Shown here one piece after another: positions 9,273 through 24,860 of a stretch of DNA of 64,000 nt. The DNA is taken from sequence record MW883059; one strand, 5' to 3'. Within the stretch, counting starts at the first letter, position 1. Each line of letters opens with the position of its first letter. Below the pieces are notes generated by a model that was not told the origin of the DNA, did no database searches, and saw nothing but the letters and a program-made list of their open reading frames with translations. The DNA is from Escherichia phage vB_EcoM_SYGD1. Position numbers and translations under genes: made by a program.

Positions 9273-11969
9273 ATGAAAGAATTTTATATCTCTATCGAAA
9301 CAGTCGGAAATAATATTGTTGAGCGTTATATTGATGAAAACGGAAAGGAACGTACTCGTGAAGTAGAATATCTTCCGACTATGTTTAGGCACTGTAAGGA
9401 AGAGTCAAAATACAAAGACATTTATGGTAAAAACTGTGCTCCTCAAAAATTTCCATCAATGAAAGATGCACGAGATTGGATGAAACGAATGGAAGACATC
9501 GGTCTCGAAGCTCTCGGTATGAACGATTTTAAACTCGCTTATATCAGTGATACATATGGTTCAGAAATTGTTTATGACCGAAAATTTGTTCGTGTAGCTA
9601 ACTGCGACATTGAGGTTACTGGCGATAAATTTCCTGACCCAATGAAAGCAGAATATGAAATTGATGCTATCACTCATTATGATTCAATTGACGACCGTTT
9701 TTACGTCTTTGATTTGTTGAATTCAATGTACGGTTCAGTATCAAAATGGGATGCAAAGTTAGCTGCTAAGCTTGACTGCGAAGGTGGTGATGAAGTTCCT
9801 CAAGAAATTCTTGACCGAGTAATTTATATGCCATTCGATAATGAGCGTGATATGCTCATGGAATATATTAATCTCTGGGAACAGAAACGACCTGCTATTT
9901 TTACTGGTTGGAATATTGAGGGATTTGACGTTCCGTATATCATGAATCGTGTTAAAATGGTTCTCGGCGAACGTAGTATGAAACGCTTCTCTCCAATCGG
10001 TCGAGTAAAATCTAAACTAATTCAAAATATGTACGGTAGCAAAGAAATTTATTCTATTGATGGCGTATCTATTCTTGATTATTTAGATTTGTACAAAAAA
10101 TTCGCATTTACTAATTTGCCATCATTCTCTTTGGAATCAGTTGCTCAACATGAAACCAAAAAAGGTAAATTACCGTACGATGGTCCTATTAATAAACTTC
10201 GTGAGACTAATCATCAACGATACATTAGTTATAACATCATTGACGTAGAATCAGTTCAAGCAATTGATAAAATTCGTGGGTTTATCGATCTAGTTTTAAG
10301 TATGTCTTATTACGCTAAAATGCCTTTTTCTGGTGTAATGAGTCCTATTAAAACTTGGGATGCTATTATTTTTAACTCATTGAAAGGTGAACATAAGGTT
10401 ATTCCTCAACAAGGTTCGCACGTTAAACAGAGTTTTCCAGGTGCATTTGTATTTGAACCTAAACCGATTGCTCGTCGATACATTATGAGTTTTGACTTGA
10501 CATCTCTGTATCCTAGCATTATTCGTCAGGTTAACATTAGTCCTGAGACTATTCGTGGACAGTTTAAAGTTCATCCAATTCATGAATATATCGCAGGAAC
10601 AGCTCCTAAGCCAAGTGATGAATATTCTTGCTCTCCGAATGGATGGATGTATGATAAGCACCAAGAAGGTATCATTCCAAAGGAAATCGCTAAAGTATTT
10701 TTCCAGCGTAAAGATTGGAAAAAGAAAATGTTCGCCGAAGAAATGAATGCCGAAGCTATTAAAAAGATTATTATGAAAGGTGCAGGGTCTTGTTCAACTA
10801 AACCGGAAGTTGAACGATATGTTAAGTTCAATGATGATTTCTTAAATGAATTATCAAATTACACCGAATCTGTTCTTAATAGTCTGATCGAAGAATGTGA
10901 AAAAGCAGCTACACTTGCTAACACAAATCAGCTGAACCGTAAAATTCTTATTAACAGTCTTTATGGTGCTCTTGGTAACATTCATTTCCGTTACTATGAT
11001 TTGCGAAATGCTACTGCTATCACAATTTTTGGTCAAGTTGGTATTCAGTGGATTGCTCGTAAAATTAATGAATATCTGAATAAAGTATGTGGAACTGATG
11101 GTGAAGATTTCATCGCAGCAGGTGATACTGATTCGGTATATGTCTGCGTAGATAAAGTTATTGAAAAAGTAGGTCTTGACCGCTTTAAAGAACAAAATGA
11201 TTTAGTTGAATTTATGAATCAGTTTGGTAAGAAAAAGATGGAACCTATGATTGATGTTGCATATCGTGAGTTATGTGATTATATGAATAACCGCGAGCAT
11301 CTGATGCATATGGACCGTGAAGCTATTTCTTGCCCTCCACTTGGTTCAAAGGGTGTTGGTGGATTTTGGAAAGCGAAAAAACGTTATGCTCTGAACGTTT
11401 ATGATATGGAAGATAAACGATTTGCTGAACCGCATCTAAAAATCATGGGTATGGAAACTCAACAGAGTTCAACACCAAAAGCAGTACAAGAAGCTCTCGA
11501 AGAAAGTATTCGTCGTATTCTTCAGGAAGGCGAAGAGTCTGTCCAAGAATACTACAAGAACTTTGAGAAAGAATATCGTCAACTTGACTATAAAGTTATT
11601 GCTGAAGTAAAAACCGCGAACGATATAGCGAAATATGACGATAAAGGTTGGCCAGGATTTAAATGCCCGTTCCACATTCGTGGGGTGCTAACTTATCGTC
11701 GAGCTGTTAGTGGTTTAGGTGTAGCTCCAATTTTGGATGGAAATAAGGTAATGGTTCTTCCATTACGTGAAGGAAATCCATTTGGTGACAAGTGCATTGC
11801 TTGGCCATCAGGCACAGAACTTCCAAAAGAAATTCGTTCTGATGTACTGTCTTGGATTGACTACTCAACTTTGTTCCAAAAATCGTTTGTTAAACCGCTT
11901 GCGGGTATGTGTGAATCGGCGGGTATGGACTATGAAGAAAAAGCTTCGTTAGACTTCCTGTTTGGCTGA
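9273..11969 (+). CDS. 43: gp43 DNA polymerase (family B) with 3'-5' exonuclease domain
   Basis: 898 aa; Exo I motif VANCDIEV, polymerase motif A DLTSLYPS, motif C GDTDSVY. Confidence 0.95.
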   Translation: MKEFYISIETVGNNIVERYIDENGKERTREVEYLPTMFRHCKEESKYKDIYGKNCAPQKFPSMKDARDWMKRMEDIGLEALGMNDFKLAYISDTYGSEIVYDRKFVRVANCDIEVTGDKFPDPMKAEYEIDAITHYDSIDDRFYVFDLLNSMYGSVSKWDAKLAAKLDCEGGDEVPQEILDRVIYMPFDNERDMLMEYINLWEQKRPAIFTGWNIEGFDVPYIMNRVKMVLGERSMKRFSPIGRVKSKLIQNMYGSKEIYSIDGVSILDYLDLYKKFAFTNLPSFSLESVAQHETKKGKLPYDGPINKLRETNHQRYISYNIIDVESVQAIDKIRGFIDLVLSMSYYAKMPFSGVMSPIKTWDAIIFNSLKGEHKVIPQQGSHVKQSFPGAFVFEPKPIARRYIMSFDLTSLYPSIIRQVNISPETIRGQFKVHPIHEYIAGTAPKPSDEYSCSPNGWMYDKHQEGIIPKEIAKVFFQRKDWKKKMFAEEMNAEAIKKIIMKGAGSCSTKPEVERYVKFNDDFLNELSNYTESVLNSLIEECEKAATLANTNQLNRKILINSLYGALGNIHFRYYDLRNATAITIFGQVGIQWIARKINEYLNKVCGTDGEDFIAAGDTDSVYVCVDKVIEKVGLDRFKEQNDLVEFMNQFGKKKMEPMIDVAYRELCDYMNNREHLMHMDREAISCPPLGSKGVGGFWKAKKRYALNVYDMEDKRFAEPHLKIMGMETQQSSTPKAVQEALEESIRRILQEGEESVQEYYKNFEKEYRQLDYKVIAEVKTANDIAKYDDKGWPGFKCPFHIRGVLTYRRAVSGLGVAPILDGNKVMVLPLREGNPFGDKCIAWPSGTELPKEIRSDVLSWIDYSTLFQKSFVKPLAGMCESAGMDYEEKASLDFLFG

Positions 11970-11981
11970 TAGAATAAATCT

Positions 11982-12004
11982 AGGGACCTCCGGGTCCCTT
12001 TTTC
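11982..12004 (+). terminator. intrinsic terminator hairpin (AGGGACC-TCCG-GGTCCCT + T5)
   Basis: Perfect 7-bp GC-rich stem and T-tract immediately after the gene 43 stop. Confidence 0.6.
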
Positions 12005-12086
12005 ATACAAGTAATATAAATCTATACTTAGGAAAAATAGGTGATTCTGGACCTCTGGAATTCATTAAAATTTTTTTCACAAAACT

Positions 12087-12116
12087 GTTTACATCCCTGT
12101 TCTTCCGTGGTACTAT
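12087..12116 (+). promoter_or_regulatory. T4-type early promoter (-35 GTTTAC, 18-nt spacer, extended -10 TGgTACTAT)
   Basis: GTTTAC at 12087-12092, TACTAT at 12111-12116, AT-rich UP-like tract upstream; followed by a conserved leader and RBS GGAG before the ATG at 12151. Confidence 0.6.
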
Positions 12117-12150
12117 ACAACTATCAACTGATACGGATTTGGAGAATAAA

Positions 12151-12531
12151 ATGAAAATCGCTATTTTGGTTATTGCATTGGGTCTTACTGGTTGTGTAGC
12201 TCAAGGACCGGTAGTAAATCAATCTGATGTAGGAAAAATTGTAAACTGTTCAAGCAAATTTTATAATCCTAATGTTAAGTGTTATAAAGAAGCTCCAAAA
12301 CAGACAGTAGAACAAATGCAGGCGAATTTTGACGAAGCTATTCGCCCAGATGAATCTGCTCAAGCATATCGTAATTCGGATATAATTACACGCGAAGAAA
12401 AAATTGAAAACTACTGTGCTGAACTTTGGGCAAATTGGGCTAATAATTACCAATGGCGTACTGGTAAAAATGCTCCGATGGAGTATGTAGTGAATTCTTA
12501 TAATTCATGCGTAAAAAATTTGACTAAGTGA
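12151..12531 (+). CDS. putative lipoprotein (signal peptide with lipobox LTG-C)
   Basis: MKIAILVIALGLTGC is a typical lipoprotein signal and lipobox; own promoter and RBS. The track ORF 11962..12531 is an in-frame read-through of the promoter and leader, not the real N-terminus. Confidence 0.55.
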   Translation: MKIAILVIALGLTGCVAQGPVVNQSDVGKIVNCSSKFYNPNVKCYKEAPKQTVEQMQANFDEAIRPDESAQAYRNSDIITREEKIENYCAELWANWANNYQWRTGKNAPMEYVVNSYNSCVKNLTK

Positions 12532-12538
12532 GGAAAAG

Positions 12539-12790
12539 ATGGAAACTTTAGTAGCAGGTTCAATTTTTATGGTTTTAGTTTCAGGCGTGTTGGCTATTAT
12601 TATATACATGCTTCCATGGTTCATCGCCTTGATGCGTGGGTCAAAATCGACAGTAGGAATCTTTTTCACATCTTTACTGTTTAACTGGTCAATTATTGGT
12701 TGGTTTATTACCTTTATTTGGTCAATTGCAGGTGAAACTAAAAAATCTGCACAGCAAAATCAAGTAATTATCATCAGAGAGAAGGAATGA
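12539..12790 (+). CDS. imm: Imm superinfection immunity membrane protein
   Basis: 83 aa with two hydrophobic helices; size and position between 43 and 42 match T4 Imm. Confidence 0.75.
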   Translation: METLVAGSIFMVLVSGVLAIIIYMLPWFIALMRGSKSTVGIFFTSLLFNWSIIGWFITFIWSIAGETKKSAQQNQVIIIREKE

Positions 12791-12943
12791 AAAGCAAAAT
12801 TTTAACAGTATTGCTTTTAATCTTGATGATTATAATAAGTATATACTATAGCGTAACGGTTCCTTGTATGATTCCGACACTTATTATAGGTTGGGGTTTA
12901 TTACTGTTACAAGTTAAATATGAATGTATCAATTGAGGTTTAA

Positions 12944-13684
12944 ATGATTAGTGACTCTATGACAGTTGAAGAAATCCGTCTTCATTTGGGGCTTGCATTA
13001 AAGGAAAAAGATTTCGTAGTTGATAAAACTGGCGTTAAAACTATTGAAATTATTGGCGCATCATTTGTAGCAGATGAACCGTTTATTTTTGGCGCTCTTA
13101 ATGATGAATACATTCAGCGTGAACTTGAATGGTATAAATCTAAAAGTTTGTTTGTTAAAGATATTCCGGGTGAAACACCAAAGATTTGGCAACAGGTAGC
13201 ATCTTCTAAAGGCGAAATTAACTCGAATTATGGTTGGGCTATCTGGTCAGAAGATAACTATGCCCAGTATGATATGTGTTTAGCTGAGCTTGGTCAAAAT
13301 CCTGATTCTCGACGTGGTATCATGATTTATACTCGTCCATCCATGCAATTTGACTACAATAAAGATGGCATGTCAGATTTCATGTGTACGAATACAGTAC
13401 AGTACCTGATTCGTGATAAGAAAGTCAATGCAGTAGTTAACATGAGAAGTAATGATTGTTGGGCAGGCTATCGTAATGATTATGCATGGCAAAAATACGT
13501 ATTAGATAAATTAGTATCTGATTTGAATACAGGCGACCCGTCGCGGCAATATAAAGCAGGTTCTATTATATGGAATGTTGGAAGTCTTCATGTGTACGAA
13601 AATCAATTTTATTTAGTTGACCATTGGTGGAACACCGGTGAAACTCACATTGCTAAAAAGGATTATACCGGAAAATGGAAGTAA
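12944..13684 (+). CDS. 42: gp42 dCMP hydroxymethylase
   Basis: 246 aa, thymidylate-synthase-like fold; same length and position as T4 gp42. Confidence 0.9.
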   Translation: MISDSMTVEEIRLHLGLALKEKDFVVDKTGVKTIEIIGASFVADEPFIFGALNDEYIQRELEWYKSKSLFVKDIPGETPKIWQQVASSKGEINSNYGWAIWSEDNYAQYDMCLAELGQNPDSRRGIMIYTRPSMQFDYNKDGMSDFMCTNTVQYLIRDKKVNAVVNMRSNDCWAGYRNDYAWQKYVLDKLVSDLNTGDPSRQYKAGSIIWNVGSLHVYENQFYLVDHWWNTGETHIAKKDYTGKWK

Positions 13685-14316
13685 ATGTTCCACATGTTTA
13701 TAAGTATAAACATCCTAAAACTAAAAAGTGGTATATAGGAAGTCATGATGGTCACAACCCGAATTATGATGGTTCGGGTGTAGTTTGGCAGCATGCTAAA
13801 AAGAAATATGGAATAAAATCCTTTAATAAAGAAATATTATATGAAGGACCGATGTTTAGACAAGTTGAAGAAATTATTTTAACTTGTTTAGATGCTGCTA
13901 ATTGCCCGGATTCATATAATTTAAAGAATGAAGCGTGGGGAGGAAGTTTTCCAGGTAAATTAAATGGAATGTACGGTAAGAAACTATCTCCAGAAGAAAG
14001 ATATAAATGTGGAAATGCCTTTCGTGGAATCAAGCGTCCTGATCATTCTAAAAGAATGAAAGGCGAAGGTAATCCAATGTATGGTAAAAATGAGCAGGCA
14101 TATGGAATTATAAATCGAGCAAAGGAAAATTCTGGTAAAACTTATGAAGAAATTTTTGGCGCAGAAAAAGCTAAAATAATTAAAGAAACGATGTCTAAAA
14201 ATCGTAAAGGAAAACCTCATAATTTGATAGAAAAAATATGTCCGCATTGCGGACTAAAAGGACGTGGGCCAAATATGACAAGATACCATTTTGACAAATG
14301 TAAGGCACTTAAATGA
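13675..14316 (+). CDS. GIY-YIG homing endonuclease (Seg-like) with C-terminal zinc finger
   Basis: N-terminal GIY-YIG motifs VYKYKH ... KKWYIGSH; C-terminal CPHCGLKGRGPNMTRYHFDKC; start overlaps the gene 42 stop. Confidence 0.7.
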   Translation: MEVNVPHVYKYKHPKTKKWYIGSHDGHNPNYDGSGVVWQHAKKKYGIKSFNKEILYEGPMFRQVEEIILTCLDAANCPDSYNLKNEAWGGSFPGKLNGMYGKKLSPEERYKCGNAFRGIKRPDHSKRMKGEGNPMYGKNEQAYGIINRAKENSGKTYEEIFGAEKAKIIKETMSKNRKGKPHNLIEKICPHCGLKGRGPNMTRYHFDKCKALK

Positions 14317-15155
14317 TTCAATTCGTAATTCCAAGCTATCAACGCGTAGGGGCAGTTTCTGCCCTTGATATGTTTCCATCTGATTATGAACCACATATTG
14401 TAGTACGTGAACACGAAGAAAAAGCTTATTATGATGCTTATGGGTCTAGAGCTAAAATTATAACTATTCCTGATGATGTCAATGGAATTGCTGGTACTCG
14501 TAAAGCGATTACTGATATGTATGCAGGTCAACGAATTTGGATGATCGATGATGATACTACTATTCGTATGAGTTCAATGCGAAAGAAAGATGATCGTCGC
14601 TGTGTAGATAAAATTAATCAGTTAACCCGTGAACAGTTCTATGAATTGATTCAATACGTTGAAGATGCTATGGATTGCGGGTATTATCATGGTCATGCTC
14701 GTCTACCTATTTTTAAAATTACTTCATCTTGGGGTAATTATCGTGAAAATTCATATGGATTCACGAATACATGGTATGACCTCGGGAAACTTACAACAGA
14801 ACAAATTGGGTATGGAAAAATTGATTTATGCGAAGATATGTATGCATTTCTCAATTTAATTAATCAAGGTTATCCGCATTTGGCTTTGTTCAAATATCTG
14901 GTTGTGTCTGGAAAAGCACAAGCTCCTGGCGGATGTAGTTCAATTCGTAGTAATTCAAAACATAATAGAGCTCTTGAGCAAATCAATAGAGAGTTTCCAG
15001 AGCAAGCTCGTTGGAAAACATCGAATATTGAAAAGAGAAAATCGTTGGGTGAAGAAGACGAGCCATTAAAGGTTCTTCGTATGTGTGTTTCACGTAAAGA
15101 AAAGTCAGAAGCATTTCATAAGTTTAATGCTATTCATCCAATAGCAGTTGATTAA
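14313..15155 (+). CDS. putative DNA-modifying glycosyltransferase (GT-A-like, DxD motif), not T4-type beta-gt
   Basis: 280 aa with WMIDDDTTI; occupies the T4 beta-gt position between 42 and uvsX but does not resemble T4 beta-gt (351 aa) as I recall it. Confidence 0.5.
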   Translation: MIQFVIPSYQRVGAVSALDMFPSDYEPHIVVREHEEKAYYDAYGSRAKIITIPDDVNGIAGTRKAITDMYAGQRIWMIDDDTTIRMSSMRKKDDRRCVDKINQLTREQFYELIQYVEDAMDCGYYHGHARLPIFKITSSWGNYRENSYGFTNTWYDLGKLTTEQIGYGKIDLCEDMYAFLNLINQGYPHLALFKYLVVSGKAQAPGGCSSIRSNSKHNRALEQINREFPEQARWKTSNIEKRKSLGEEDEPLKVLRMCVSRKEKSEAFHKFNAIHPIAVD

Positions 15156-15173
15156 TGCCTAAATTTATTGTGT

Positions 15174-15179
15174 TATAAT
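15174..15179 (+). promoter_or_regulatory. extended -10 promoter element (TGT-TATAAT) upstream of uvsX
   Basis: TGTTATAAT read directly; no clear GTTTAC -35 at standard spacing. Confidence 0.35.
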
Positions 15180-15232
15180 TACCCTATCTTTAACCAGTGA
15201 GGAAAATATAATGATGCCTATGGAAAAAATGA

Positions 15233-16162
15233 ATGTCTATTGCAGATTTAAAATCCCGTTTGATTAAAGCTTCCACTTCTAAAATGACTGCTGAACTGAC
15301 TACATCTAAATTCTTTAATGAAAAGGATGTAATCCGTACAAAAATCCCAATGCTTAATATCGCTATTTCCGGTGCGATTGATGGCGGTATGCAGTCTGGT
15401 TTAACTATTTTTGCAGGTCCTTCTAAACACTTTAAATCAAATATGTCTTTGACTATGGTTGCGGCGTATTTGAACAAATATCCTGACGCGGTTTGTCTAT
15501 TTTATGATAGCGAATTTGGTATTACTCCAGCTTATTTGCGGTCCATGGGAGTTGACCCTGAACGAGTAATTCATACGCCAATTCAGTCAGTTGAACAACT
15601 GAAAATTGATATGGTGAATCAGCTTGAAGCTATCGAGCGCGGTGAAAAAGTTATTGTATTCATCGACTCAATCGGTAATATGGCTTCTAAGAAAGAAACG
15701 GAAGATGCCTTGAATGAAAAATCTGTGGCAGATATGACTCGTGCTAAATCACTGAAGTCATTATTCCGTATTGTTACTCCTTATTTTAGTATTAAAAACA
15801 TTCCATGTGTTGCGGTTAACCATACAATTGAAACAATTGAAATGTTTAGTAAAACCGTGATGACAGGTGGTTGTGTTATTGCTGGTACTAAAATCCAGAT
15901 GTCCGATGGTTCTACTAAAGCAGTTGAAGATATTCGTCCAGGTGAGCGTGTTAAAACCATGGTCGGTGATAATGAAGTAACTTATGTTTGGGACCCCGAA
16001 ACTCTGGCTGAAGGTACTCCTGAATGTTTCGAAATTGAATTCGAAGACGGTTATAAAGTAACTACTTCAGATACTCACAAGTTCCTGGTAATGGTTAAAG
16101 ACATTCCAACTTGGGTTGAAGCTAAAGATTTAGTAGCTGGAATGGATTGTGTTGTAAGGTAA
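15233..16162 (+). CDS. uvsX: UvsX recombinase N-terminal fragment (residues 1-213) fused to an intein N-half (96 aa), then stop
   Basis: The first 213 aa are near-identical to T4 UvsX as I recall it (Walker A GPSKHFKS). From Cys214 (nt 15872) the sequence CVIAGTKIQ...TSDTHKFLV...MDCVVR has intein block A/B character and ends at tandem TAA TAA stops. Confidence 0.85.
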   Translation: MSIADLKSRLIKASTSKMTAELTTSKFFNEKDVIRTKIPMLNIAISGAIDGGMQSGLTIFAGPSKHFKSNMSLTMVAAYLNKYPDAVCLFYDSEFGITPAYLRSMGVDPERVIHTPIQSVEQLKIDMVNQLEAIERGEKVIVFIDSIGNMASKKETEDALNEKSVADMTRAKSLKSLFRIVTPYFSIKNIPCVAVNHTIETIEMFSKTVMTGGCVIAGTKIQMSDGSTKAVEDIRPGERVKTMVGDNEVTYVWDPETLAEGTPECFEIEFEDGYKVTTSDTHKFLVMVKDIPTWVEAKDLVAGMDCVVR

Positions 16163-16165
16163 TAA

Positions 16166-16207
16166 ATATGGGTACCGGACTAATGTATATTTTTGAGGTA
16201 CCCATAT
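16166..16207 (+). promoter_or_regulatory. perfect 11-bp hairpin (ATATGGGTACC / GGTACCCATAT) sequestering the RBS and start codon of the endonuclease gene
   Basis: The 3' arm (16197-16207) covers the last GG of the GAGG Shine-Dalgarno and the AT of the ATG at 16206; 20-nt loop; AATAAATA (16161-16168) immediately 5' resembles a late promoter. Confidence 0.55.
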
Positions 16208-16928
16208 GAATTTTGTCTATAAAATTGTGTTCAACGATAGAATTAAAAACGGCACTCCGCCATATTACTACATAGGGAGCAAGACAAATGCTTCTTATGT
16301 AGATGGTAAGATTATTGACGCCCACGGTCGTGAGTACTATGGCTCATCGAGATATCCCGGATATCATGATTTTATCAATAATGTTACTGTTGAAATATTG
16401 GAGCAATATGATGATATTAAACACACTAAACTGCTAGAGCGCGAAAATTTCTATCAGAAACAAGTAAATGTTAAAACAAATCCAGATTATTTTAATTTAG
16501 ATTATGCTTGTGGGCATAATTCATATGCTAATGCTGATTTTGCATCATACAAGCATTATATAACAGGTAAATGTATTCGTCTTGAAAGAAACCATCCGCT
16601 TGTTAAATCTGGTGTGTATGTTGGCGTCACAAAAGGCGTGAAATCTTCTGATGAACACCGTAAGCACATATCAGAAGGTATTACCGGAGAAAACAATGGG
16701 TTCTATGGTAAGAAACACACTAAAGAAACAATTAATAAAATATCAGAAAAAGCAAAGAAAAGATTAAAGCATTCCCATCCTAGACAAAAAGGTGTTATCA
16801 TAAACGGTATTGAATACCGGGGCGTCAGACCTGCTGCAAGAGCGTTGGGAATTAATCCTAACACAATTATCAACAAAATTAAAGCTAATATAAAAGGATG
16901 GGCTTATGCAGTAGATGCACGCGGTTAA
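16206..16928 (+). CDS. free-standing GIY-YIG homing endonuclease (Seg-like) located between the two uvsX fragments
   Basis: 240 aa; GIY-YIG motifs FVYKIVF ... PPYYYIGSK; own RBS; different reading frame from the upstream uvsX fragment; paralogous to the ORF at 60053..60685. Confidence 0.75.
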   Translation: MNFVYKIVFNDRIKNGTPPYYYIGSKTNASYVDGKIIDAHGREYYGSSRYPGYHDFINNVTVEILEQYDDIKHTKLLERENFYQKQVNVKTNPDYFNLDYACGHNSYANADFASYKHYITGKCIRLERNHPLVKSGVYVGVTKGVKSSDEHRKHISEGITGENNGFYGKKHTKETINKISEKAKKRLKHSHPRQKGVIINGIEYRGVRPAARALGINPNTIINKIKANIKGWAYAVDARG

Positions 16929-17036
16929 GGCATTCGAAGATATGGTAAAAGAATTTGGAATGAACATGACAATCAAGATTATGCTTTCATGAAATATGTA
17001 TATTGAAACTAGCTACTACGAAACACAAGGTAAAGT

Positions 17037-17684
17037 ATGAAAATTAAATCTGTTAAATCTGTTGGTAAAAAAGAAGTCTATGATTTGTCTGTTGCTGACG
17101 TCGAGCATTATGTTTTAGAAAATGGTATCGTTACACACAACACAGGCGTAATGTATTCGGCTGATACTGTGTTCATTATCGGTAAGCGTCAGATTAAAGA
17201 TGGTTCTGATCTTCAAGGGTATCAATTTGTTCTAAATGTAGAAAAATCTCGTACCGTTAAAGAAAAAAGTAAATTCTTTATTGATGTTAAATTTGACGGT
17301 GGTATCGATCCTTATTCTGGATTGTTAGATATGGCTCTAGAATTAGGATTTGTAGTAAAACCTAAAAATGGCTGGTATGCTCGTGAATTTCTTGACGAAG
17401 AAACCGGCGAGATGATTCGCGAAGAAAAATCTTGGCGTGCAAAAGATACCAATTGCACTACATTCTGGGGTCCTTTATTTAAGCATCAACCATTCCGAGA
17501 TGCTATTAAACGTGCTTATCAGTTAGGTGCTATTGATAGTAATGAAATTGTTGAAGCTGAAGTTGATGAATTGATTAACTCAAAGGTTGAAAAATTTAAA
17601 TCTCCAGAAAGTAAAAACAAATCAGCAGCTGATTTAGAAACTGACCTAGATCAGTTAAGTGATATGGAAGAATTTAATGAATAA
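17037..17684 (+). CDS. uvsX: intein C-half (35 aa) fused to the UvsX recombinase C-terminal fragment (180 aa)
   Basis: After ...IVTHN the sequence TGVMYSADTVFIIGKRQIKDG...SDMEEFNE matches the T4 UvsX C-terminal half as I recall it; RBS AAGG precedes the ATG at 17037. Confidence 0.85.
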   Translation: MKIKSVKSVGKKEVYDLSVADVEHYVLENGIVTHNTGVMYSADTVFIIGKRQIKDGSDLQGYQFVLNVEKSRTVKEKSKFFIDVKFDGGIDPYSGLLDMALELGFVVKPKNGWYAREFLDEETGEMIREEKSWRAKDTNCTTFWGPLFKHQPFRDAIKRAYQLGAIDSNEIVEAEVDELINSKVEKFKSPESKNKSAADLETDLDQLSDMEEFNE

Positions 17685-18015
17685 AGATGATTTAGATTTA
17701 GAAATTATCGACGAATCCCCCTCTTCGGAGGGGGAAGAAGAAAGAAAAGAACGTCTTTTTAATGAATCCCTTAAGATAATTAAATCTGCCATGGAAAATG
17801 TTATCCAGGAGATTATCATTAAACTAGAAGATGGTTCTACACACATTGTGTATGTGACAAAATTAGATTGGGTTGATGGAAAAGTCGTAATGGACTTTGC
17901 TGTTCTTGACCAAGAAAGAAAAGCTGAGTTAGCTCCTCATGTAGAAAAATGTATTACAATGCAACTACAAGATGCATTTAATAAAAGGTCAAAGAAAAAA
18001 TTTAAATTCTTTTAA
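17659..18015 (+). CDS. 40: gp40 head-vertex assembly protein
   Basis: Position between uvsX and 41; the track start is GTG, an alternative ATG start at 17677 overlaps the uvsX stop. Confidence 0.55.
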   Translation: MIWKNLMNKDDLDLEIIDESPSSEGEEERKERLFNESLKIIKSAMENVIQEIIIKLEDGSTHIVYVTKLDWVDGKVVMDFAVLDQERKAELAPHVEKCITMQLQDAFNKRSKKKFKFF

Positions 18016-18024
18016 GGAGTAAGT

Positions 18025-19452
18025 GTGGTAGAAATTATTCTTTCTCATCTCATATTTGATCAAGCTTATTTTTCAAAAGTTTGGCCATATATGGATTCAG
18101 AATATTTTGAAAGTGGTCCAGCTAAAAATACATTCAAATTAATTAAATCTCATGTTAATGAGTACCATAGCGTTCCATCTATTAATGCGTTAAATGTTGC
18201 ATTAGAAAATAGTTCATTTACTGAAACAGAATATTCTGGTGTAAAAACACTTATTTCAAAACTAGCCGATTCTCCGGAAGACCACAGCTGGTTAGTAAAA
18301 GAAACAGAAAAATATGTTCAGCAAAGGGCGATGTTTAATGCTACGTCTAAAATAATTGAAATTCAAACTAATGCTGAGCTTCCTCCGGAAAAACGCAATA
18401 AGAAAATGCCGGATGTTGGTGCTATTCCTGACATCATGCGTCAAGCATTATCAATTTCATTTGATAGCTACGTTGGCCATGATTGGATGGATGACTATGA
18501 AGCACGTTGGCTATCTTATATGAATAAAGCTCGTAAGGTTCCATTTAAACTCAAAATTCTAAATAAAATTACTAAAGGCGGAGCTGAAACTGGAACACTG
18601 AACGTTTTAATGGCTGGTGTTAACGTTGGTAAGTCATTAGGTCTGTGTTCATTGGCAGCAGATTATTTACAGCTCGGTCATAATGTTCTTTACATTTCCA
18701 TGGAAATGGCAGAAGAAGTCTGTGCTAAACGTATTGACGCTAATATGCTCGATGTTTCTCTTGATGACATTGATGATGGGCATATTTCTTATGCTGAGTA
18801 TAAAGGAAAAATGGAAAAATGGCGTGAGAAATCTACTCTCGGCCGTTTAATCGTTAAGCAATATCCTACTGGTGGAGCAGACGCTAATACATTTCGATCG
18901 CTTTTAAACGAATTAAAGCTCAAGAAGAATTTTGTTCCAACAATCATTATTGTTGACTATCTAGGTATTTGTAAATCTTGCCGCATCAGAGTTTACTCAG
19001 AAAATAGTTACACAACTGTTAAAGCCATTGCAGAGGAATTGCGTGCTCTGGCTGTTGAAACCGAAACTGTTCTTTGGACTGCAGCACAGGTTGGTAAGCA
19101 AGCTTGGGATTCTTCTGATGTTAACATGAGCGATATTGCAGAATCTGCCGGTCTTCCAGCAACAGCCGATTTTATGCTTGCGGTCATTGAAACCGAGGAG
19201 TTAGCAGCTGCTGAACAACAACTAATTAAGCAAATCAAATCACGATATGGTGATAAGAATAAATGGAATAAGTTTTTGATGGGTGTTCAAAAAGGAAATC
19301 AGAAATGGGTAGAAATTGAACAAGATTCTACTCCAACTGAAGTTAACGAAGTAGCAGGTTCACAGCAGATTCAGGCTGAACAGAACCGCTATCAAAGAAA
19401 CGAATCCACCCGAGCTCAGTTAGATGCTTTGGCGAATGAATTAAAATTTTAG
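18025..19452 (+). CDS. 41: gp41 replicative DNA helicase (DnaB-like)
   Basis: 475 aa as in T4 gp41; Walker A GVNVGKS, Walker B IIIVDYLG. Confidence 0.9.
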   Translation: MVEIILSHLIFDQAYFSKVWPYMDSEYFESGPAKNTFKLIKSHVNEYHSVPSINALNVALENSSFTETEYSGVKTLISKLADSPEDHSWLVKETEKYVQQRAMFNATSKIIEIQTNAELPPEKRNKKMPDVGAIPDIMRQALSISFDSYVGHDWMDDYEARWLSYMNKARKVPFKLKILNKITKGGAETGTLNVLMAGVNVGKSLGLCSLAADYLQLGHNVLYISMEMAEEVCAKRIDANMLDVSLDDIDDGHISYAEYKGKMEKWREKSTLGRLIVKQYPTGGADANTFRSLLNELKLKKNFVPTIIIVDYLGICKSCRIRVYSENSYTTVKAIAEELRALAVETETVLWTAAQVGKQAWDSSDVNMSDIAESAGLPATADFMLAVIETEELAAAEQQLIKQIKSRYGDKNKWNKFLMGVQKGNQKWVEIEQDSTPTEVNEVAGSQQIQAEQNRYQRNESTRAQLDALANELKF

Positions 19453-19481
19453 TTTACAAGCTGACAAGACTATGATATAGT
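19452..19481 (+). promoter_or_regulatory. T4-type early promoter (GTTTAC-N18-TATAGT) with an 8-bp inverted repeat spanning spacer and -10
   Basis: GTTTAC 19452-19457, TATAGT 19476-19481; inverted repeat CAAGACTA / TAGTCTTG at 19464-19471 and 19482-19489. Confidence 0.5.
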
Positions 19482-19510
19482 AGTCTTGTTGGTTAAATGA
19501 GGAGATTGTT

Positions 19511-19693
19511 ATGGAATTGGTAAAGGTAGTTTTTATGGGGTGGTTTAAGAATGAAAGCATGTTTACTAAAGAAATCACAATGATGAAAGACGACGTTCAA
19601 TGGGCTACTACTCAATATGCTGAAGTTAATAAAGCATTAGTTAAAGCTTTCATTGATGACAAGAAAGTATGCGAAGTGGATTGCCGAGGGTAA
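19511..19693 (+). CDS. dmd: Dmd-like small protein (antitoxin against host RnlA/LsoA in T4)
   Basis: 60 aa, same length as T4 Dmd; position just downstream of gene 41. Confidence 0.55.
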   Translation: MELVKVVFMGWFKNESMFTKEITMMKDDVQWATTQYAEVNKALVKAFIDDKKVCEVDCRG

Positions 19694-19694
19694 T

Positions 19695-19916
19695 ATGCAT
19701 ATCGTTTTATTTAAACCTACTCCGTATAATGTCAGGAAAAATACTCAATTCAAGGCACTTATTGCGGATACGTGGGAATTGGTGTTAGATATTCCAGCAG
19801 AAGAAAGTCCTCCATTTGGTCGAGTGGAATTTATTAAGTTTGCTGTGCGCCCTACGAAGCGACAGATTCGCCAATGCAAAAGAGACTTTCGTAAAATAGT
19901 CAAGTTAGAGAAATAG
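19695..19916 (+). CDS. hypothetical small protein
   Basis: ATG at 19695 preceded by GAGG; the longer track ORF from 19653 overlaps dmd. Confidence 0.35.
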   Translation: MHIVLFKPTPYNVRKNTQFKALIADTWELVLDIPAEESPPFGRVEFIKFAVRPTKRQIRQCKRDFRKIVKLEK

Positions 19917-19939
19917 TTATTGATGCTAGTAAAATAGTA

Positions 19940-19969
19940 GTTTACAAGCTGATAGAGTTGTGTTATAGT
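19940..19969 (+). promoter_or_regulatory. T4-type early promoter (GTTTAC-N18-TATAGT) with an inverted repeat in the spacer
   Basis: GTTTAC 19940-19945, TATAGT 19964-19969; inverted repeat GCTGATAG / CTATCAGC flanks the -10. Confidence 0.5.
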
Positions 19970-20000
19970 AATTCTATCAGCTAATCGCGGAGAAAAGAAA

Positions 20001-20255
20001 ATGATGCTAGTTAATAGAGAATATCAGTTTAAATCAGAAGAAGATTTTGAAAAATTCGCAAGTGGTTGTGAACTGAATAGACGCACAGCTAAAGTCATAG
20101 GATTAAAACCCTTTACAGTTCTAGATTGTGAAGTTTCTAAATTCCGCAGAGGGTGTTCTATTAGCGGTCATGCTCTGGTTGATGGGAACACATTTTTCTT
20201 TGTTTTTAGCGTCAGAGAACTTTTATTGATTAACGAACTTGAGGAAATAAAATAG
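20001..20255 (+). CDS. hypothetical small protein
   Basis: 84-aa ORF downstream of an early promoter. Confidence 0.4.
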   Translation: MMLVNREYQFKSEEDFEKFASGCELNRRTAKVIGLKPFTVLDCEVSKFRRGCSISGHALVDGNTFFFVFSVRELLLINELEEIK

Positions 20256-20312
20256 TTTACTTTTGTTGGAAATTGAGATACTATATAAACATAAACTACT
20301 GAGGAGATTATC

Positions 20313-20606
20313 ATGAAAAAATTTGTTTTTGCTGCAATTTTTGCTTTGGCTTCTTGTACTGCTCAGCCTGCTATGGCAGGTTATGATAAAGATTTGTGTG
20401 AATGGTCTATGACTGCAGATCAGACTGAGGTTGAAACTCAGATTGAAGCAGATATTATGAATATCGTTGAGCGTGATCGCCCTGAAATGAAAGCTGAAGT
20501 ACAAAAACAACTTAAGTCTGGTGGTGTAATGCAGTATAATTACGTTTTGTATTGTGATAAAAACTTCAATAATAAAAATATCATCGCTGAAGTGGTAGGT
20601 GAATAA
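20313..20606 (+). CDS. sp: Sp (spackle)-like periplasmic protein with signal peptide
   Basis: 97 aa, the length of T4 Sp; N-terminal signal peptide MKKFVFAAIFALASCTAQPAMA; RBS GAGGAG. Confidence 0.55.
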   Translation: MKKFVFAAIFALASCTAQPAMAGYDKDLCEWSMTADQTEVETQIEADIMNIVERDRPEMKAEVQKQLKSGGVMQYNYVLYCDKNFNNKNIIAEVVGE

Positions 20607-20618
20607 TTAGAGGCTAAT

Positions 20619-20783
20619 ATGAAAACGTTTAAAGAATTTATTAAAGAAGATATGGTAGCTGGAGATTCAGGTGGTAATCCTGAAAATATCTCTACTGGAA
20701 CAACGTCAGGCGCTGTAGTAAATAAAGGTCCTGAACAGATTCCTAAAAAGAAAAAAGAGGAATCTAAAGAAAAAGAAGAGTAA
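20619..20783 (+). CDS. hypothetical small Lys/Glu-rich protein
   Basis: 54-aa ORF with RBS, tightly packed before gene 61; below the track length cutoff. Confidence 0.35.
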   Translation: MKTFKEFIKEDMVAGDSGGNPENISTGTTSGAVVNKGPEQIPKKKKEESKEKEE

Positions 20784-20786
20784 AAA

Positions 20787-21815
20787 ATGTCATCAATACC
20801 TTGGATTGATAATGAGTTTGCATATCGTGCGCTAGCTCATTTACCTAAATTCACACAAGTAAATAATAGTTCAACTTTTAAATTACGGTTTAGATGCCCT
20901 GTTTGTGGAGATTCAAAAACCGACCAAAATAAAGCTCGTGGATGGTATTATGGCGATAATAATGAAGGAAATATTCATTGCTATAACTGTAACTATCATG
21001 CACCAATCGGAATATATTTAAAGGAGTTTGAACCTGATTTATATCGTGAGTATATCTTTGAAATAAGAAAAGAAAAAGGTAAAAGTCGTCCAGTAGAAAA
21101 ACCTAAAGAACTTCCTAAACAACCCGAGAAGAAAATAATTAAATCTCTTCCGTCATGCATTAGATTAGATAAACTGACGGAAGACCATCCAATTATAAAA
21201 TACGTAAAAGCTCGTTGTATTCCAAAGGATAAATGGAAATATCTTTGGTTTACAACCGAATGGCCTAAATTAGTTAATAGCATAGCACCGGGAACATATA
21301 AAAAGGAAATACCTGAGCCTCGTCTTGTTATTCCAATTTATAATGCTAATGGAAAAGCTGAGTCTTTTCAAGGACGTGCATTAAAGAAAGATGCTCCTCA
21401 AAAATATATCACCATCAAAGCTTATCCTGAGGCAACAAAAATCTATGGTGTTGAACGAGTTAAAGATGGTGATGTATATGTTCTAGAAGGACCTATAGAT
21501 TCACTTTTTATTGAAAATGGTATAGCTATTACAGGTGGTCAATTAGACCTAGAAATTGTTCCATTTAAAGATAGACGTGTGTGGGTTTTAGATAATGAAC
21601 CTCGTCATCCTGACACTATTAAACGAATGACTAAATTAGTTGATGCAGGAGAAAGGGTTATGTTTTGGGACAAATCTCCCTGGAAATCAAAAGATGTTAA
21701 TGATATGATTAGAAAGGAAGGTGCAACCCCTGAACAAATTATGGAATATATGAAAAATAATATTGCTCAAGGGTTGATGGCTAAAATGCGTCTATCTAAA
21801 TATGCTAAGATTTAA
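20787..21815 (+). CDS. 61: gp61 DNA primase
   Basis: 342 aa as in T4 gp61; N-terminal zinc ribbon CPVCGDS ... CYNC; TOPRIM-like acidic motifs. Confidence 0.9.
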   Translation: MSSIPWIDNEFAYRALAHLPKFTQVNNSSTFKLRFRCPVCGDSKTDQNKARGWYYGDNNEGNIHCYNCNYHAPIGIYLKEFEPDLYREYIFEIRKEKGKSRPVEKPKELPKQPEKKIIKSLPSCIRLDKLTEDHPIIKYVKARCIPKDKWKYLWFTTEWPKLVNSIAPGTYKKEIPEPRLVIPIYNANGKAESFQGRALKKDAPQKYITIKAYPEATKIYGVERVKDGDVYVLEGPIDSLFIENGIAITGGQLDLEIVPFKDRRVWVLDNEPRHPDTIKRMTKLVDAGERVMFWDKSPWKSKDVNDMIRKEGATPEQIMEYMKNNIAQGLMAKMRLSKYAKI

Positions 21816-22012
21816 ATTAACCCAACTAAAGCAAATGCTAAATCTACGAATGTATCAAGAGTAATTACTGGAATACTAACGCCATGAGCGAGAGCAACTG
21901 GCGATAAAACAAAATTCCAAAGTAAAATTCCTATCATAGCAGAAATAGTAAAAGCTATACGTTTTTTATTACCTTTGATGGCATTAACAAGTGCCATTAA
22001 TTTTTGTACCAT
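21812..22012 (-). CDS. small membrane protein (two predicted TM helices) on the opposite strand
   Basis: 66 aa, hydrophobic; strong SD on the minus strand (TAAGGAGGACAT-ATG); its stop overlaps the gene 61 stop. Confidence 0.45.
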   Translation of the reverse strand: MVQKLMALVNAIKGNKKRIAFTISAMIGILLWNFVLSPVALAHGVSIPVITLDTFVDLAFALVGLI

Positions 22013-22040
22013 ATGTCCTCCTTATTGCTTTATATATTTA

Positions 22041-22049
22041 TTGTATAAT
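22041..22049 (+). promoter_or_regulatory. extended -10 promoter element (TGT-TATAAT) upstream of gene 56
   Basis: TTGTATAAT read directly, about 40 nt upstream of the gene 56 ATG. Confidence 0.35.
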
Positions 22050-22085
22050 TAATCTACTAACCCATGAATTGAAAGGAAAAATAAC

Positions 22086-22601
22086 ATGCCACATTTCAAC
22101 GAATGTAGTCATCTGATCGAAGGCGCTGATAAAGCTCAAAATGAATACTGGGATATTCTCGGTGATGAAAAAGACCCGCTGCAGGTTATGCTTGATATGC
22201 AGAAATCTTTGCAGGTTCGTTTAGCAAATGACCGCGAATACTGCTATCATCCAGATAAATTAGAAACTGCCGGTGATGTTGTTTCTTGGATGCGTGAACA
22301 AAAAGACTGTATTGATGATGAATTCCGCGAACTTCTGACTTCTCTTGGTGAAATGTCACGTGGTGAAAAAGATGCATCGGCAGTTTGGAAAAAATGGAAA
22401 GCACGTTATATTGAAGCGCAAGAAAAACGCATTGATGAAATGTCCCCAGAAGATCAGCTCGAAATTAAATTTGAGCTTGTGGATATATTTCATTTCGTAT
22501 TAAATATGTTTGCTGGCCTTGGAATGAATGCGGAAGAAATTTTTAAACTTTATTATTTGAAAAATAAACATAATTTTGAACGTCAAGATAATGGGTATTA
22601 A
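22086..22601 (+). CDS. 56: gp56 dCTPase/dUTPase (MazG-like)
   Basis: 171 aa as in T4 gp56; conserved acidic helical motifs. Confidence 0.8.
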   Translation: MPHFNECSHLIEGADKAQNEYWDILGDEKDPLQVMLDMQKSLQVRLANDREYCYHPDKLETAGDVVSWMREQKDCIDDEFRELLTSLGEMSRGEKDASAVWKKWKARYIEAQEKRIDEMSPEDQLEIKFELVDIFHFVLNMFAGLGMNAEEIFKLYYLKNKHNFERQDNGY

Positions 22602-23265
22602 ACAAAAATTTTATAGAACATATATAGTAAAAGTTAGGACGCCGAAAGGCGTCTTTTGGTACGCTGGGAAACATGAATCATTTATTGTAAATCCATATGA
22701 TGATAAATATCCGGGTTCAGGCAAAATACTATGGAACATATATCGTAAGTATGGTTTTAATTATAAAATACGTTGGTCAAAATGCCATGGTTCTAGAGAA
22801 AAATCATATGAAGTTGAACGCGAGCTAATATCTGCATTAAAACGTAAACACCCAGATACTTGCATTAATATTTCTCCTGGTGGTCAGGGTGGAGAAGGAA
22901 GAAAATGGACTGAGCAACAACGATTAGAACATAAACTTAGATTAAACAACCCTGAAACAAAAACTCGGATGAAGAATTCACAACGTATAGCCCAAAATAG
23001 AGCAGAACGAAAAGCTCGGCAATCTGAAGTAATGAAAAAGTTTTATTCAAATGGCGGAAATAAAAAGATTTCAGAAGGAACTTCAAGGGCGCAAAGAAAA
23101 GCACCGCATTGGCATGAACCACTTAAAAGCGAAATACACGAGTTATGGGTTTCTTTAGGTAAACCAGCAACAGGCCCGGTTGTAAAGGCGCTTAAAGGAA
23201 AATATGATGTAACAAGTTCAGCTCTTAAGAATTTAATTTACTTATTCAGAAAAGAAGATGTATAA
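22576..23265 (+). CDS. GIY-YIG homing endonuclease (SegF-like, adjacent to gene 56)
   Basis: 229 aa; motifs FYRTYIVKV ... VFWYAGKH; basic C-terminal DNA-binding region; start overlaps the end of gene 56. Confidence 0.65.
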   Translation: MNVKIMGIKQKFYRTYIVKVRTPKGVFWYAGKHESFIVNPYDDKYPGSGKILWNIYRKYGFNYKIRWSKCHGSREKSYEVERELISALKRKHPDTCINISPGGQGGEGRKWTEQQRLEHKLRLNNPETKTRMKNSQRIAQNRAERKARQSEVMKKFYSNGGNKKISEGTSRAQRKAPHWHEPLKSEIHELWVSLGKPATGPVVKALKGKYDVTSSALKNLIYLFRKEDV

Positions 23266-23268
23266 ATA
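23261..23268 (+). promoter_or_regulatory. late promoter TATAAATA upstream of soc
   Basis: Exact TATAAATA about 30 nt upstream of the soc start. Confidence 0.6.
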
Positions 23269-23298
23269 ATCATGTAATTTAAATAAAAGGAGAATTAC

Positions 23299-23544
23299 AT
23301 GGCTAGTACTCGCGGTTATGTTAATATCAAAACATTTGAGCAGAAATTAGATGGAAATAAGAAAATTGAAGGAAAGGAAATTTCTGTAGCTTTCCCTCTT
23401 TATTCTGACGTTCACAAAATTTCTGGTGCTCATTACCAGACATTCCCTTCAGAAAAAGCAGCATATACTACTGTATATGAAGAAAATCAACGTGCTGCGT
23501 GGATTGCTGCAAACGAAGATTTGTGGAAAGTAACTGGTGAATAA
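23299..23544 (+). CDS. soc: Soc small outer capsid protein
   Basis: 81 aa; MASTRGYVNIKTFEQKLDGNKKIEG... matches T4 Soc as I recall it. Confidence 0.85.
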   Translation: MASTRGYVNIKTFEQKLDGNKKIEGKEISVAFPLYSDVHKISGAHYQTFPSEKAAYTTVYEENQRAAWIAANEDLWKVTGE

Positions 23545-23548
23545 TTTC

Positions 23549-23574
23549 AAGGACTCCTTCGGGAGTCCTTTTTT
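23549..23574 (+). terminator. intrinsic terminator (AAGGACTCC-TTCG-GGAGTCCTT + T-tract)
   Basis: 9-bp stem with UUCG loop directly after soc. Confidence 0.6.
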
Positions 23575-23584
23575 CATTTTACCG

Positions 23585-23614
23585 GTTTACTTTCCAAAAT
23601 GAGTATGGTATAAT
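23585..23614 (+). promoter_or_regulatory. T4-type early promoter (GTTTAC-N18-TATAAT)
   Basis: GTTTAC 23585-23590, TATAAT 23609-23614. Confidence 0.55.
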
Positions 23615-23640
23615 AGAATTATCTTATAGAGGAGAGCACT

Positions 23641-24682: not shown

Positions 24683-24860
24683 ATGGTTCAGTAGACCAAA
24701 CTCAATGTACATTGATGATGGTTGGGTTGAACAGGCAAATAAAGAAATGCAGAACGAATCAGAAGAATGGATGAAATCAATGATTAGTGCTGAGAAAGAA
24801 AAGAAACTAGAACGCTCAGCGCTTAAATTGATGAGAGATATCTATGGGGATAAATCATGA
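24657..24860 (+). CDS. hypothetical small protein
   Basis: ORF only. Confidence 0.3.

Follow-up and report, generated by a model that had tools for sequence, protein, structure and literature searches.

A split intein and a homing endonuclease gene in uvsX

In Escherichia phage vB_EcoM_SYGD1, the recombinase gene uvsX is divided over three open reading frames (ORFs), which occupy positions 15233-17684 of the window that we analysed, a stretch of 64,000 nucleotides (nt) of sequence record MW883059. Our results make it likely that uvsX is interrupted by a mobile cassette of 1,270 base pairs (bp), which combines a class-1 split intein with the gene of an I-TevI-like homing endonuclease, that UvsX is restored by protein trans-splicing, and that the cassette spreads by homing. 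Profile matches, alignments and conserved residues support that the two inserted segments flanking the endonuclease gene are the halves of a naturally split class-1 intein; from these sequences we infer trans-splicing of UvsX.

All three ORFs, as read from the ORF list and the sequence, lie on the + strand. ORF1 (15233-16162, 309 amino acids, aa) starts with the N-extein of UvsX (15233-15871), i.e. codons 1-213 ending in ...TVMTGG, which we identified by its identity to intact UvsX and by matches to RecA/UvsX profiles. It continues in frame into the N-terminal intein half (IntN; 15872-16165), which consists of 96 codons from CVIAGTKIQ to DCVVR, contains SDTHKF, is followed by the tandem stop codons TAA TAA (16160-16165), and matches TIGR01445 and Hint-type Pfam profiles. 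ORF2 (16206-16928, 240 aa) is in a different frame than ORF1 and has the sequence GAGG 7 nt 5' of its ATG. ORF3 (17037-17684, 215 aa), with AAGG located 6 nt upstream of its ATG, opens with MKIKSVKSVGKKEVYDLSVADVEHYVLENGIVTHN, the 35 codons of the C-terminal intein half (IntC; 17037-17141, MKIKSVKSVGKK...GIVTHN), which end in His-Asn and match TIGR01443. The C-extein follows at 17142-17684; it comprises Thr+1, then GVMYSADTVF... (180 codons plus stop), and is identical to residues 214-393 of intact UvsX. The DNA inserted in uvsX thus spans 15872-17141. This layout, with its frames and its segments of 213 + 96 and 35 aa, had been described in an earlier note on this DNA, and the ORF list and the sequence bear it out, including the ribosome-binding site that the note had assigned to the endonuclease gene.

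The intein halves

When joined to a single sequence of 131 aa, the two halves matched PF14890 (Intein_splicing) with 43.1 bits (cut-off 35.8) and TIGR01445 (intein_Nterm) with 25.6 bits (cut-off 24.5), while IntC matched TIGR01443 (intein_Cterm) with 29.9 bits (cut-off 15.6). Each half alone gave Hint/intein Pfam matches below the cut-off, as would be expected of a split domain. The earlier note had recognised the split intein by its initial Cys, block B, blocks F/G and terminal His-Asn, and had suggested a comparison with intein profiles; in this comparison, the joined 131 aa exceeded the curated thresholds. Among the sequences of solved structures in the Protein Data Bank (PDB), the intein matched Npu DnaE (E = 1e-5) and gp41-1 (3e-4). 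The top two rows of this search, a designed repeat protein, were discarded as a repeat artefact. IntN aligned with IntN of Npu DnaE including block B, with SDTH opposite TKDH. Likewise, the 35 aa of IntC aligned with residues 2-36 of the Npu DnaE IntC, and hence the intein is split at the canonical endonuclease-insertion position.

The residues needed for splicing are present: Cys1 (Cys214 of ORF1), the His of block B, the penultimate His, the terminal Asn and Thr at position +1. Cys1, the block-B His, the terminal His-Asn and Thr or Ser at +1 are kept in 12/12 GenBank loci and in metagenomic homologues, and the block-B His was nearly invariant in a further intein alignment. The insertion site of every uvsX copy in the GenBank loci reads GG/C...HN/T (slashes mark the extein-intein junctions), with HN/T or HN/S across the homologues. 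The net charge of IntN is -9, and its residues 41-60 form an acidic patch; the first 12 residues of IntC have a net charge of +5. Ratios of non-synonymous to synonymous substitution rates (dN/dS) were low in both halves, at 0.05-0.2 for IntN in comparison with 11 homologues and 0.02-0.18 for IntC.

Alternatively, the intein could have lost the ability to splice and have become a tight non-covalent clamp, so that UvsX would consist of two chains with a HINT domain permanently attached, similar to the intein-less split NrdA of Aeh1. T4-like phages can tolerate the fracture of a gene that has no intein, as illustrated by Aeh1 nrdA and phage 25 gene 43 (PMC2677866), and Thr at +1 together with Ser in block B could mean weak chemistry. 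However, the catalytic positions are invariant across loci with intein halves that are only 54-56% identical, which is the pattern expected for catalysis and not for mere binding. Moreover, a domain of 131 aa retained at the end of the L2 region would probably block filament function. We consider such a clamp unlikely.

The UvsX exteins and the insertion site

Residues 1-213 of ORF1 and 36-215 of ORF3 together form a protein of 393 aa, which is identical at 393/393 positions to the uninterrupted UvsX of phage vB-Eco-KMB39 (Tequatrovirus). The joined exteins matched the sequence of the T4 UvsX crystal structure 3IO5 with E = 3e-203, and the C-extein matched PF21134 (T4_UVSX_C) with E = 2e-39. 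The joined protein of about 393 aa that the earlier note had predicted, colinear with T4 UvsX, is therefore found, and its TVMTGG/T junction is exact, since the joined exteins equal intact UvsX. Compared with the intein-less allele, the DNA of the exteins has 17 nucleotide differences, all in third codon positions and without any amino-acid change. Hence, the split uvsX is under the same purifying selection as the intact gene. Pairwise dN/dS of the exteins between the window and its homologues was 0.02-0.24.

The cassette sits exactly between codons Gly213 and Thr214. This break aligns with ...TTGG/N of E. coli RecA, where the L2 DNA-binding region ends on its C-terminal side. L2 is likewise targeted by the RecA intein of M. 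leprae and by a group I intron in recA of a Bacillus phage (PMC3239194). We looked for recoding of the homing site in cassette-bearing alleles and rejected it: the 45 bp on each side match the intein-less allele save for one silent change at +30. Because the target is not recoded, immunity must come from the interruption itself.

The selection on the exteins also bears on the idea that uvsX is a pseudogene, inactivated by insertion of the endonuclease gene, in phages that manage without a recombinase of their own. T4 uvsX mutants are indeed viable with a reduced burst, and GenBank annotators list the pieces as separate or hypothetical genes. Yet the differences from the intact allele comprise 17 synonymous and 0 non-synonymous changes, dN/dS of the exteins remains low over large distances, and the start codons and ribosome-binding sites of both halves are kept in about 20 phages of many genera. 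We regard a pseudogene as very improbable.

A sequencing or assembly artefact, or a group I intron with an endonuclease that restores uvsX by RNA splicing, has hardly any chance of being the explanation: although T-even group I introns carry GIY-YIG endonucleases such as I-TevI (PMC2988022) and phage recA genes can hold introns in the L2 region (PMC3239194), the inserted segments are genuine halves of an intein that share the reading frame of the exteins, and an Rfam scan of 15000-17900 returned no family, intron or other, even at E = 1, so that we rejected a group I or II intron. The stop codons at 16160-16165 that the earlier note had reported occur in 8 GenBank/RefSeq records, and an assembly artefact is ruled out because the same stops and ORFs are shared by 6 independently sequenced isolates and by metagenome contigs.

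The predicted homing endonuclease

Upstream of the C-terminal intein half, ORF2 forms a free-standing gene (16206-16928, +) for a protein of 240 aa with a predicted GIY-YIG-type catalytic domain at its N-terminus, followed by a NUMOD3 motif and a helix-turn-helix region for DNA binding. NUMOD3 was matched with 40.2 bits (cut-off 20.4) and NUMOD1/helix-turn-helix weakly, and two homing-endonuclease families of PHROGs were matched with E = 1e-25. The sequence of the C-terminal part resembles the DNA-binding domain of I-TevI (1i3j; E = 2e-4), and hhalign aligned the protein with T4 I-TevI (E = 1.6e-5, probability 79%), with ERENF in both. In an alignment of 13 family sequences, VYK (Y5), YYIGS (Y22, I23, G24) and the counterparts of the catalytic Glu and Asn, E80 and N97, were invariant or nearly so. 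An AlphaFold model based on 13 homologues had a pLDDT of 86, exceeding 90 for residues 1-100, and its two best matches in the PDB were 1i3j (probability 1.00) and the I-TevI catalytic domain 1ln0 (probability 0.97, TM 0.63, rmsd 4.0 Å). On this basis we accept the 240-aa protein as a predicted, divergent Seg-like and I-TevI-like GIY-YIG enzyme. It evolves much faster than the intein (62% versus 92% amino-acid identity). An identical copy of the protein is encoded on a 9-kb metagenome contig from ENA (P0001).

SegA is a T4 enzyme known to cut uvsX (PMC2988022). Orthology of the 240-aa endonuclease to SegA was rejected, at 25% identity over 71 residues and E = 0.02. A second free-standing, Seg-like endonuclease gene in the window (13675-14316, 213 aa) shows 32% identity to T4 SegA (E = 5e-9); it lies between gene 42 and the glucosyltransferase gene, overlapping the start of the latter. 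This gene occurs in 77 Tequatrovirus records and is missing from BYEP01 and HY03. Hence, two endonuclease genes are present within 3 kb of uvsX.

Several related loci carry an altered endonuclease gene. In Yersinia phage TG1 (L011, 2792-3799) it is apparently disrupted, with two tblastn pieces and only the C-terminal 201 aa annotated, and in Vibrio phage vB_VmeM-32 (L012, 2784-3185) it is truncated to 133 aa. Shewanella phage Thanatos-1 (L008, 2778-3431) has an unrelated classical GIY-YIG gene instead, which overlaps the stop of the N-terminal part. The intein halves of these three phages are intact. Turnover of the endonuclease with a retained intein is the decay expected in a homing cycle, in which the intein is retained because uvsX depends on it.

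Distribution and mobility of the cassette

The three-ORF arrangement was found in 8 of the 598 records that matched uvsX, with 94.5-99.2% identity over the whole 2,452 bp. These 8 records represent 6 isolates (BYEP01, SP21535, ELT1, pSe_SNUABM_01, HY03 and RPN226). A tblastn search with IntN extended the arrangement to 27 phage records overall. Besides the 6 Tequatrovirus isolates, about 14 T4-like phages of other genera have it, and its distribution is patchy. These further carriers include Gelderlandvirus, Karamvirus, a Klebsiella phage, Bragavirus, Tegunavirus, Jiangsuvirus, Shewanella phage Thanatos-1 and two Vibrio phages. Metagenome contigs carry the same stops and the same three ORFs as well.

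The cassettes of Salmonella phage CF-SP2 (Gelderlandvirus), Enterobacter phage UFV01 (Karamvirus) and Klebsiella phage Lion_ER11 are nearly identical. Over 1,157 bp (L003, 3628-4784, and the equivalent positions of L004 and L005) they share 99.5-99.6% pairwise identity, whereas the flanking uvsX DNA shares only 76-84%. The identical tract reaches 12-24 nt beyond the left border of the cassette and 3 nt beyond the right one. A near-identical cassette, delimited precisely by the ends of the intein, in such divergent backgrounds implies recent movement between phage genera with very short co-conversion tracts, which in turn place the cleavage site close to the insertion point. Two Proteus phages display the reverse pattern, with exteins that are 96-98% identical and cassettes that are 67% identical. 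Together, the sequence comparisons indicate that the cassette recently homed between genera, presumably by endonuclease cleavage of the cassette-less allele.

An exhaustive profile search also detected full-length UvsX/RecA-like proteins of 477-510 aa in which a contiguous mini-intein of this family occupies the same GG/T or GG/S site. These contiguous forms have a linker of 4-30 residues where the window copy is split. They correspond to the stage that precedes gene breaking in the model of Dassa et al.

Hairpin, late-promoter-like box, candidate operator and spacer

The 5' end of the endonuclease gene coincides with an RNA hairpin (16166-16207, +), which has a perfect stem of 11 bp (16166-16176 paired with 16197-16207) and a loop of 20 nt. 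Its 3' arm takes in the final two G of GAGG and the first two bases of the ATG at the start of the endonuclease gene. The fold energy is -19 kcal/mol (z = -1.96), and a hairpin is found at the equivalent place in 10/12 related loci. Within the closest group, the stem shows compensatory changes from GGGTACC/GGTACCC to GGATACC/GGTATCC and to GCGGATAC/GTATCCGC. Read from the sequence, a late-promoter-like box, AATAAATA (16161-16168, +), overlaps both the tandem stops and the hairpin's 5' arm and agrees with the T4 late-promoter box TATAAATA at 7/8 positions. Exact TATAAATA was not found at the window locus; it is present in or beside the corresponding hairpin of PM2, PspYZU05 and TG1.

This arrangement resembles the control regions of I-TevI (demonstrated experimentally), I-TevII, I-TevIII, segB and Aeh1 mobE. 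There, read-through early or middle transcripts fold so that the ribosome-binding site becomes inaccessible, whereas the late transcripts, which begin within the hairpin, can be translated (PMC2988022). It was also reported for 15/16 endonucleases of fractured genes (Dassa et al. 2009, PMC2677866). By analogy, the hairpin and the late promoter may regulate the endonuclease here in the same way. A scan of 15000-17800 for sigma-70 promoters and terminators gave fewer promoter-like sites than in shuffled sequences, and no terminator on the + strand.

The hairpin further contains GGTACCGGACTAATGTAT (16171-16188, +), which is colinear with and identical at 15/18 positions to the reconstituted intein-less junction GGT/ACAGGCGTAATGTAT (shuffle p = 0.002). 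The background for a junction-like match in the window is about 0.002 per 56-nt segment. TAATG (16181-16185), within the core CTAATGTA, is invariant, and the flanking bases vary in only 1-2 of 7 aligned loci, despite the position in the loop. The junction-like copy also occurs in HY03, RPN226 and Pm5461, and in a weaker form in CF-SP2 and SEA1. These observations are suggestive only: the segment may be a candidate operator that mimics the homing site, in the style of I-TevI, or a footprint of the history of the element.

Downstream of the endonuclease gene, a spacer of 108 nt (16929-17036, +) contains the decayed remnant of a small ORF of 55-61 aa, followed by the AAGG ribosome-binding site of the C-terminal gene (17027-17030). 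The small ORF is intact in Proteus phage PM2 (L007, 3614-3796), PspYZU05 (L010, 3679-3864) and Thanatos-1 (L008, 3433-3600). The spacer is 34 bp longer in HY03, and RPN226 has a larger deletion. A leftover mini-ORF of 14 codons (16996-17040) overlaps the start of the C-terminal part of uvsX (ATGA). A possible MotA-type middle promoter in the spacer, considered by eye, was rejected, as its spacing is unfit and the region is deleted in RPN226.

Proposed mechanism

We propose that uvsX is transcribed as one message, from which ORF1 and ORF3 would be translated using the ribosome-binding sites seen in front of them. In the long transcript, the 11-bp hairpin would hide the ribosome-binding site and the start codon of the endonuclease gene. 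Late transcripts starting from the box at the foot of the hairpin would lack its 5' arm, such that synthesis of the endonuclease would be confined to the late stage. The acidic IntN would associate with IntC through the basic N-terminus of the latter, and the two would fold into a HINT domain. According to the canonical intein mechanism, formation of a thioester at Cys1, attack by Thr+1 and cyclisation of the terminal Asn would then produce the Gly213-Thr214 bond. The expected products are UvsX of 393 aa and free fragments of 96 and 35 aa, and spliced UvsX is predicted to yield a tryptic junction peptide ...TVMTGGTGVMYSADTVFIIGK. During mixed infection, the endonuclease would cut intein-less uvsX near the insertion point, and repair would copy the whole cassette. 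This last step is strongly supported by the near-identical cassettes in divergent phages.

Several points weigh against this mechanism. Splicing and endonuclease activity are, for all of these phages, predictions from sequence. In block B, the usual Thr position is occupied by Ser, and the nucleophile at +1 is Thr, which in general reacts less readily than Cys or Ser. The AlphaFold model of a contiguous homologue of the intein (P0019) had low confidence (pLDDT 54) and was left out of the fold search. With respect to the endonuclease, the 240-aa protein did not match PF01541 (GIY-YIG) even at E = 10, and TIGR01453 (group I intron endonuclease), covering residues 58-227, scored 53.9 bits, just below the cut-off of 56.05. 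Furthermore, there is an insertion after YIG, and the candidate for the catalytic Arg, R50, is Arg or Lys in most of the 13 sequences, so that its conservation is not clear. Because the two profile cut-offs were missed, the family assignment rests on motifs and predicted fold; the GIY-YIG endonuclease of the earlier note stands on these motifs and on the predicted fold of both I-TevI domains. The late-promoter box is only a partial match, and because the spacer is decaying, the window copy may no longer be fully mobile.

Comparison with known systems

The fractured uvsX belongs to a known class of fractured genes and is not a new kind of system. The earlier note had pointed to similar loci in metagenomes, and the locus indeed agrees with the class described by Dassa and co-workers in 2009 (PMC2677866), also in having a hairpin before the endonuclease gene. 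That study described loci from ocean metagenomes in gp41, NrdA, NrdJ, IMPDH, DnaE, ligase and terminase genes, with eight host types (PMC2677866). As in those loci, two host ORFs follow each other in order on the same strand, with an intein half on either side of the break and the split at the position where endonucleases usually insert. The halves enclose a free-standing GIY-YIG gene, the start of which is preceded by a hairpin that often includes TATAAATA. The halves carry opposite local charges, with the same polarity of IntN and IntC as in the cyanobacterial DnaE pairs discussed in PMC2677866, and the interrupted gene serves the DNA metabolism of T4-like phages.

Other features differ from the metagenomic loci. 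Neither uvsX nor the site that follows GG at the end of L2 is represented in the eight host types, and UvsX is mentioned there only as a neighbouring ORF (PMC2677866). Moreover, the present copies are from cultivable coliphages and other isolates, rather than from metagenome reads. The overlap of the 3' end of the endonuclease gene with the downstream half, typical of the loci of Dassa et al., is replaced in the window by the 108-nt spacer. An ATGA overlap is present in the related loci of CF-SP2, UFV01, Lion_ER11, SEA1, TG1 and EniLVp02, which makes it a frequent but not a strict feature of the class.

Naturally split inteins in cultured T4-like phages were already known for DNA polymerase (PMC11923092). 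Like the PolB split inteins of the cultured T4-like phages Aes123 (PolB1) and CP21 (PolB1), the UvsX intein is split at the endonuclease position (PMC11923092, PMC12707363). In contrast, the Aes123 and CP21 inteins reside in DNA polymerase, are cysteine-less and have an IntN of 120 aa, whereas the UvsX intein is a class-1 intein of 96 + 35 aa with Cys1, His-Asn and Thr+1. Npu/Ssp DnaE and gp41-1, its best sequence matches among solved structures, are split at the same position, with an IntC of 35-36 aa, and likewise combine an acidic IntN with an IntC that is basic at its N-terminus, but the similarity is only distant (E = 1e-5 to 3e-4). The DnaE halves, moreover, are encoded at unlinked loci without an endonuclease and use Cys at +1, unlike Thr in UvsX.

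Within the RecA family, the M. leprae RecA intein and the recA intron of Bacillus phage 0305phi8-36 with I-Bth0305I target the same L2 region (PMC3239194), a highly conserved DNA-binding part of these recombinases that is critical for their function; the likeness is at the level of the region. M. leprae RecA has a contiguous intein with an internal endonuclease and 0305phi8-36 has an RNA intron (PMC3239194), whereas UvsX has a split intein. The endonuclease resembles T4 I-TevI and the Seg enzymes in its two-domain architecture of GIY-YIG and NUMOD3/helix-turn-helix and in its putative control by a hairpin and late promoter (PMC2988022), and possibly resembles I-TevI in having an operator similar to the homing site. 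It differs from I-TevI and SegA in that the gene for its 240 aa is enclosed by a split intein, instead of lying in an intron or between two genes, and it is an orthologue of neither.

We found no description of a UvsX intein in the searchable full-text literature, a scope that did not extend to subscription journals and intein registries. The host gene uvsX, the insertion site, the occurrence in ordinary coliphages and the clear transfer across genera appear to be new. GenBank has contained the same sequence from several cultured phages since about 2015, with the pieces annotated as separate genes. Because of these GenBank copies and the known polymerase split inteins, the case is less unusual than the earlier note implied.

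If the proposed mechanism holds, the locus would place a natural split intein with a homing endonuclease in a classical, genetically tractable T-even coliphage. The biochemistry of uvsX is well characterised and its mutants have a simple phenotype, and the structure of the host protein has been solved (T4 UvsX, 3IO5). Natural trans-splicing in vivo, homing of a whole split-intein cassette and the proposed route from a contiguous mini-intein to a fractured gene could thus be tested, questions that have so far been inferred mostly from metagenome reads or heterologous expression. The Cys1/Thr+1 pair of 96 + 35 aa, with its many natural variants, would also be a candidate tool for protein ligation.

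Further inteins in metagenomic UvsX

Homologues of UvsX in metagenomes contain additional inteins. Contiguous mini-inteins at the GG/T or GG/S site were observed in P0064, P0069, P0085, P0097, P0052, P0054, P0061 and P0066. These homologues have extra inteins, either contiguous or split, at the P-loop (GPSxHFK/) and at the start of L2 (NHxY../). On the contig L016 (257-5486; ENA ERZ15610583), a fractured uvsX with Ser at +1 has two HNH-like ORFs (554 and 503 aa) between its halves. In addition, an ORF of 161 aa that overlaps the 3' end of this uvsX encodes P0019, a contiguous copy of the same intein, which keeps only ...KGG before Cys1 and SETI after His-Asn.

Three loci on T4-like metagenome contigs, L018 (4346-7747; Logan contig SRR30164251), L019 and L020, have uvsX divided over three ORFs by two different split inteins. 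L018 has two HNH-type endonuclease genes between the uvsX pieces. Its middle ORF (142 aa) consists of IntC of the first intein (A), an extein of 13 residues, TQEMYSKTVVSGG, which corresponds to the L2 loop, and IntN of the second intein (B). Mature UvsX would in this case need two trans-splicing reactions. To our knowledge, a natural three-piece split-intein gene has not been described before.

From these sequences, UvsX looks like a multi-site intein hot-spot. A broader hypothesis, which we put forward tentatively and think rather less likely than not to hold in full, is that UvsX has at least three such sites (P-loop, start of L2 and end of L2), each occupied by contiguous as well as split inteins, including three-piece genes with a middle extein of 11-13 residues (the L2 loop) that two different split inteins would have to join, and that the coliphage endonuclease represses its own gene by means of an operator imitating the homing site in uvsX. 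If true, the cassette would be a selfish element inside the very recombinase that is needed for its own homing, tuned not to harm UvsX.

Genomic context and annotation

The gene content around the locus is that of a T-even phage of the T2/T6 type, in the order known from T4: DNA polymerase (gene 43), gene 42, a beta-glucosyl-HMC-alpha-glucosyltransferase gene, uvsX, gene 40 and gene 41. The closest genome in the phage collection is BYEP01, with 96.0% identity over 10000-30000.

In current databases, the uvsX halves are named "DNA repair protein" and "recombinase" and are treated as separate families or products (PHROGs phrog_8337 and phrog_18112; RefSeq NC_031047 and NC_054937). This separate naming misleads annotation and core-gene phylogenies based on uvsX, and the artefact propagates to new phage genomes. 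A HintC domain is noted in one GenBank/RefSeq record.

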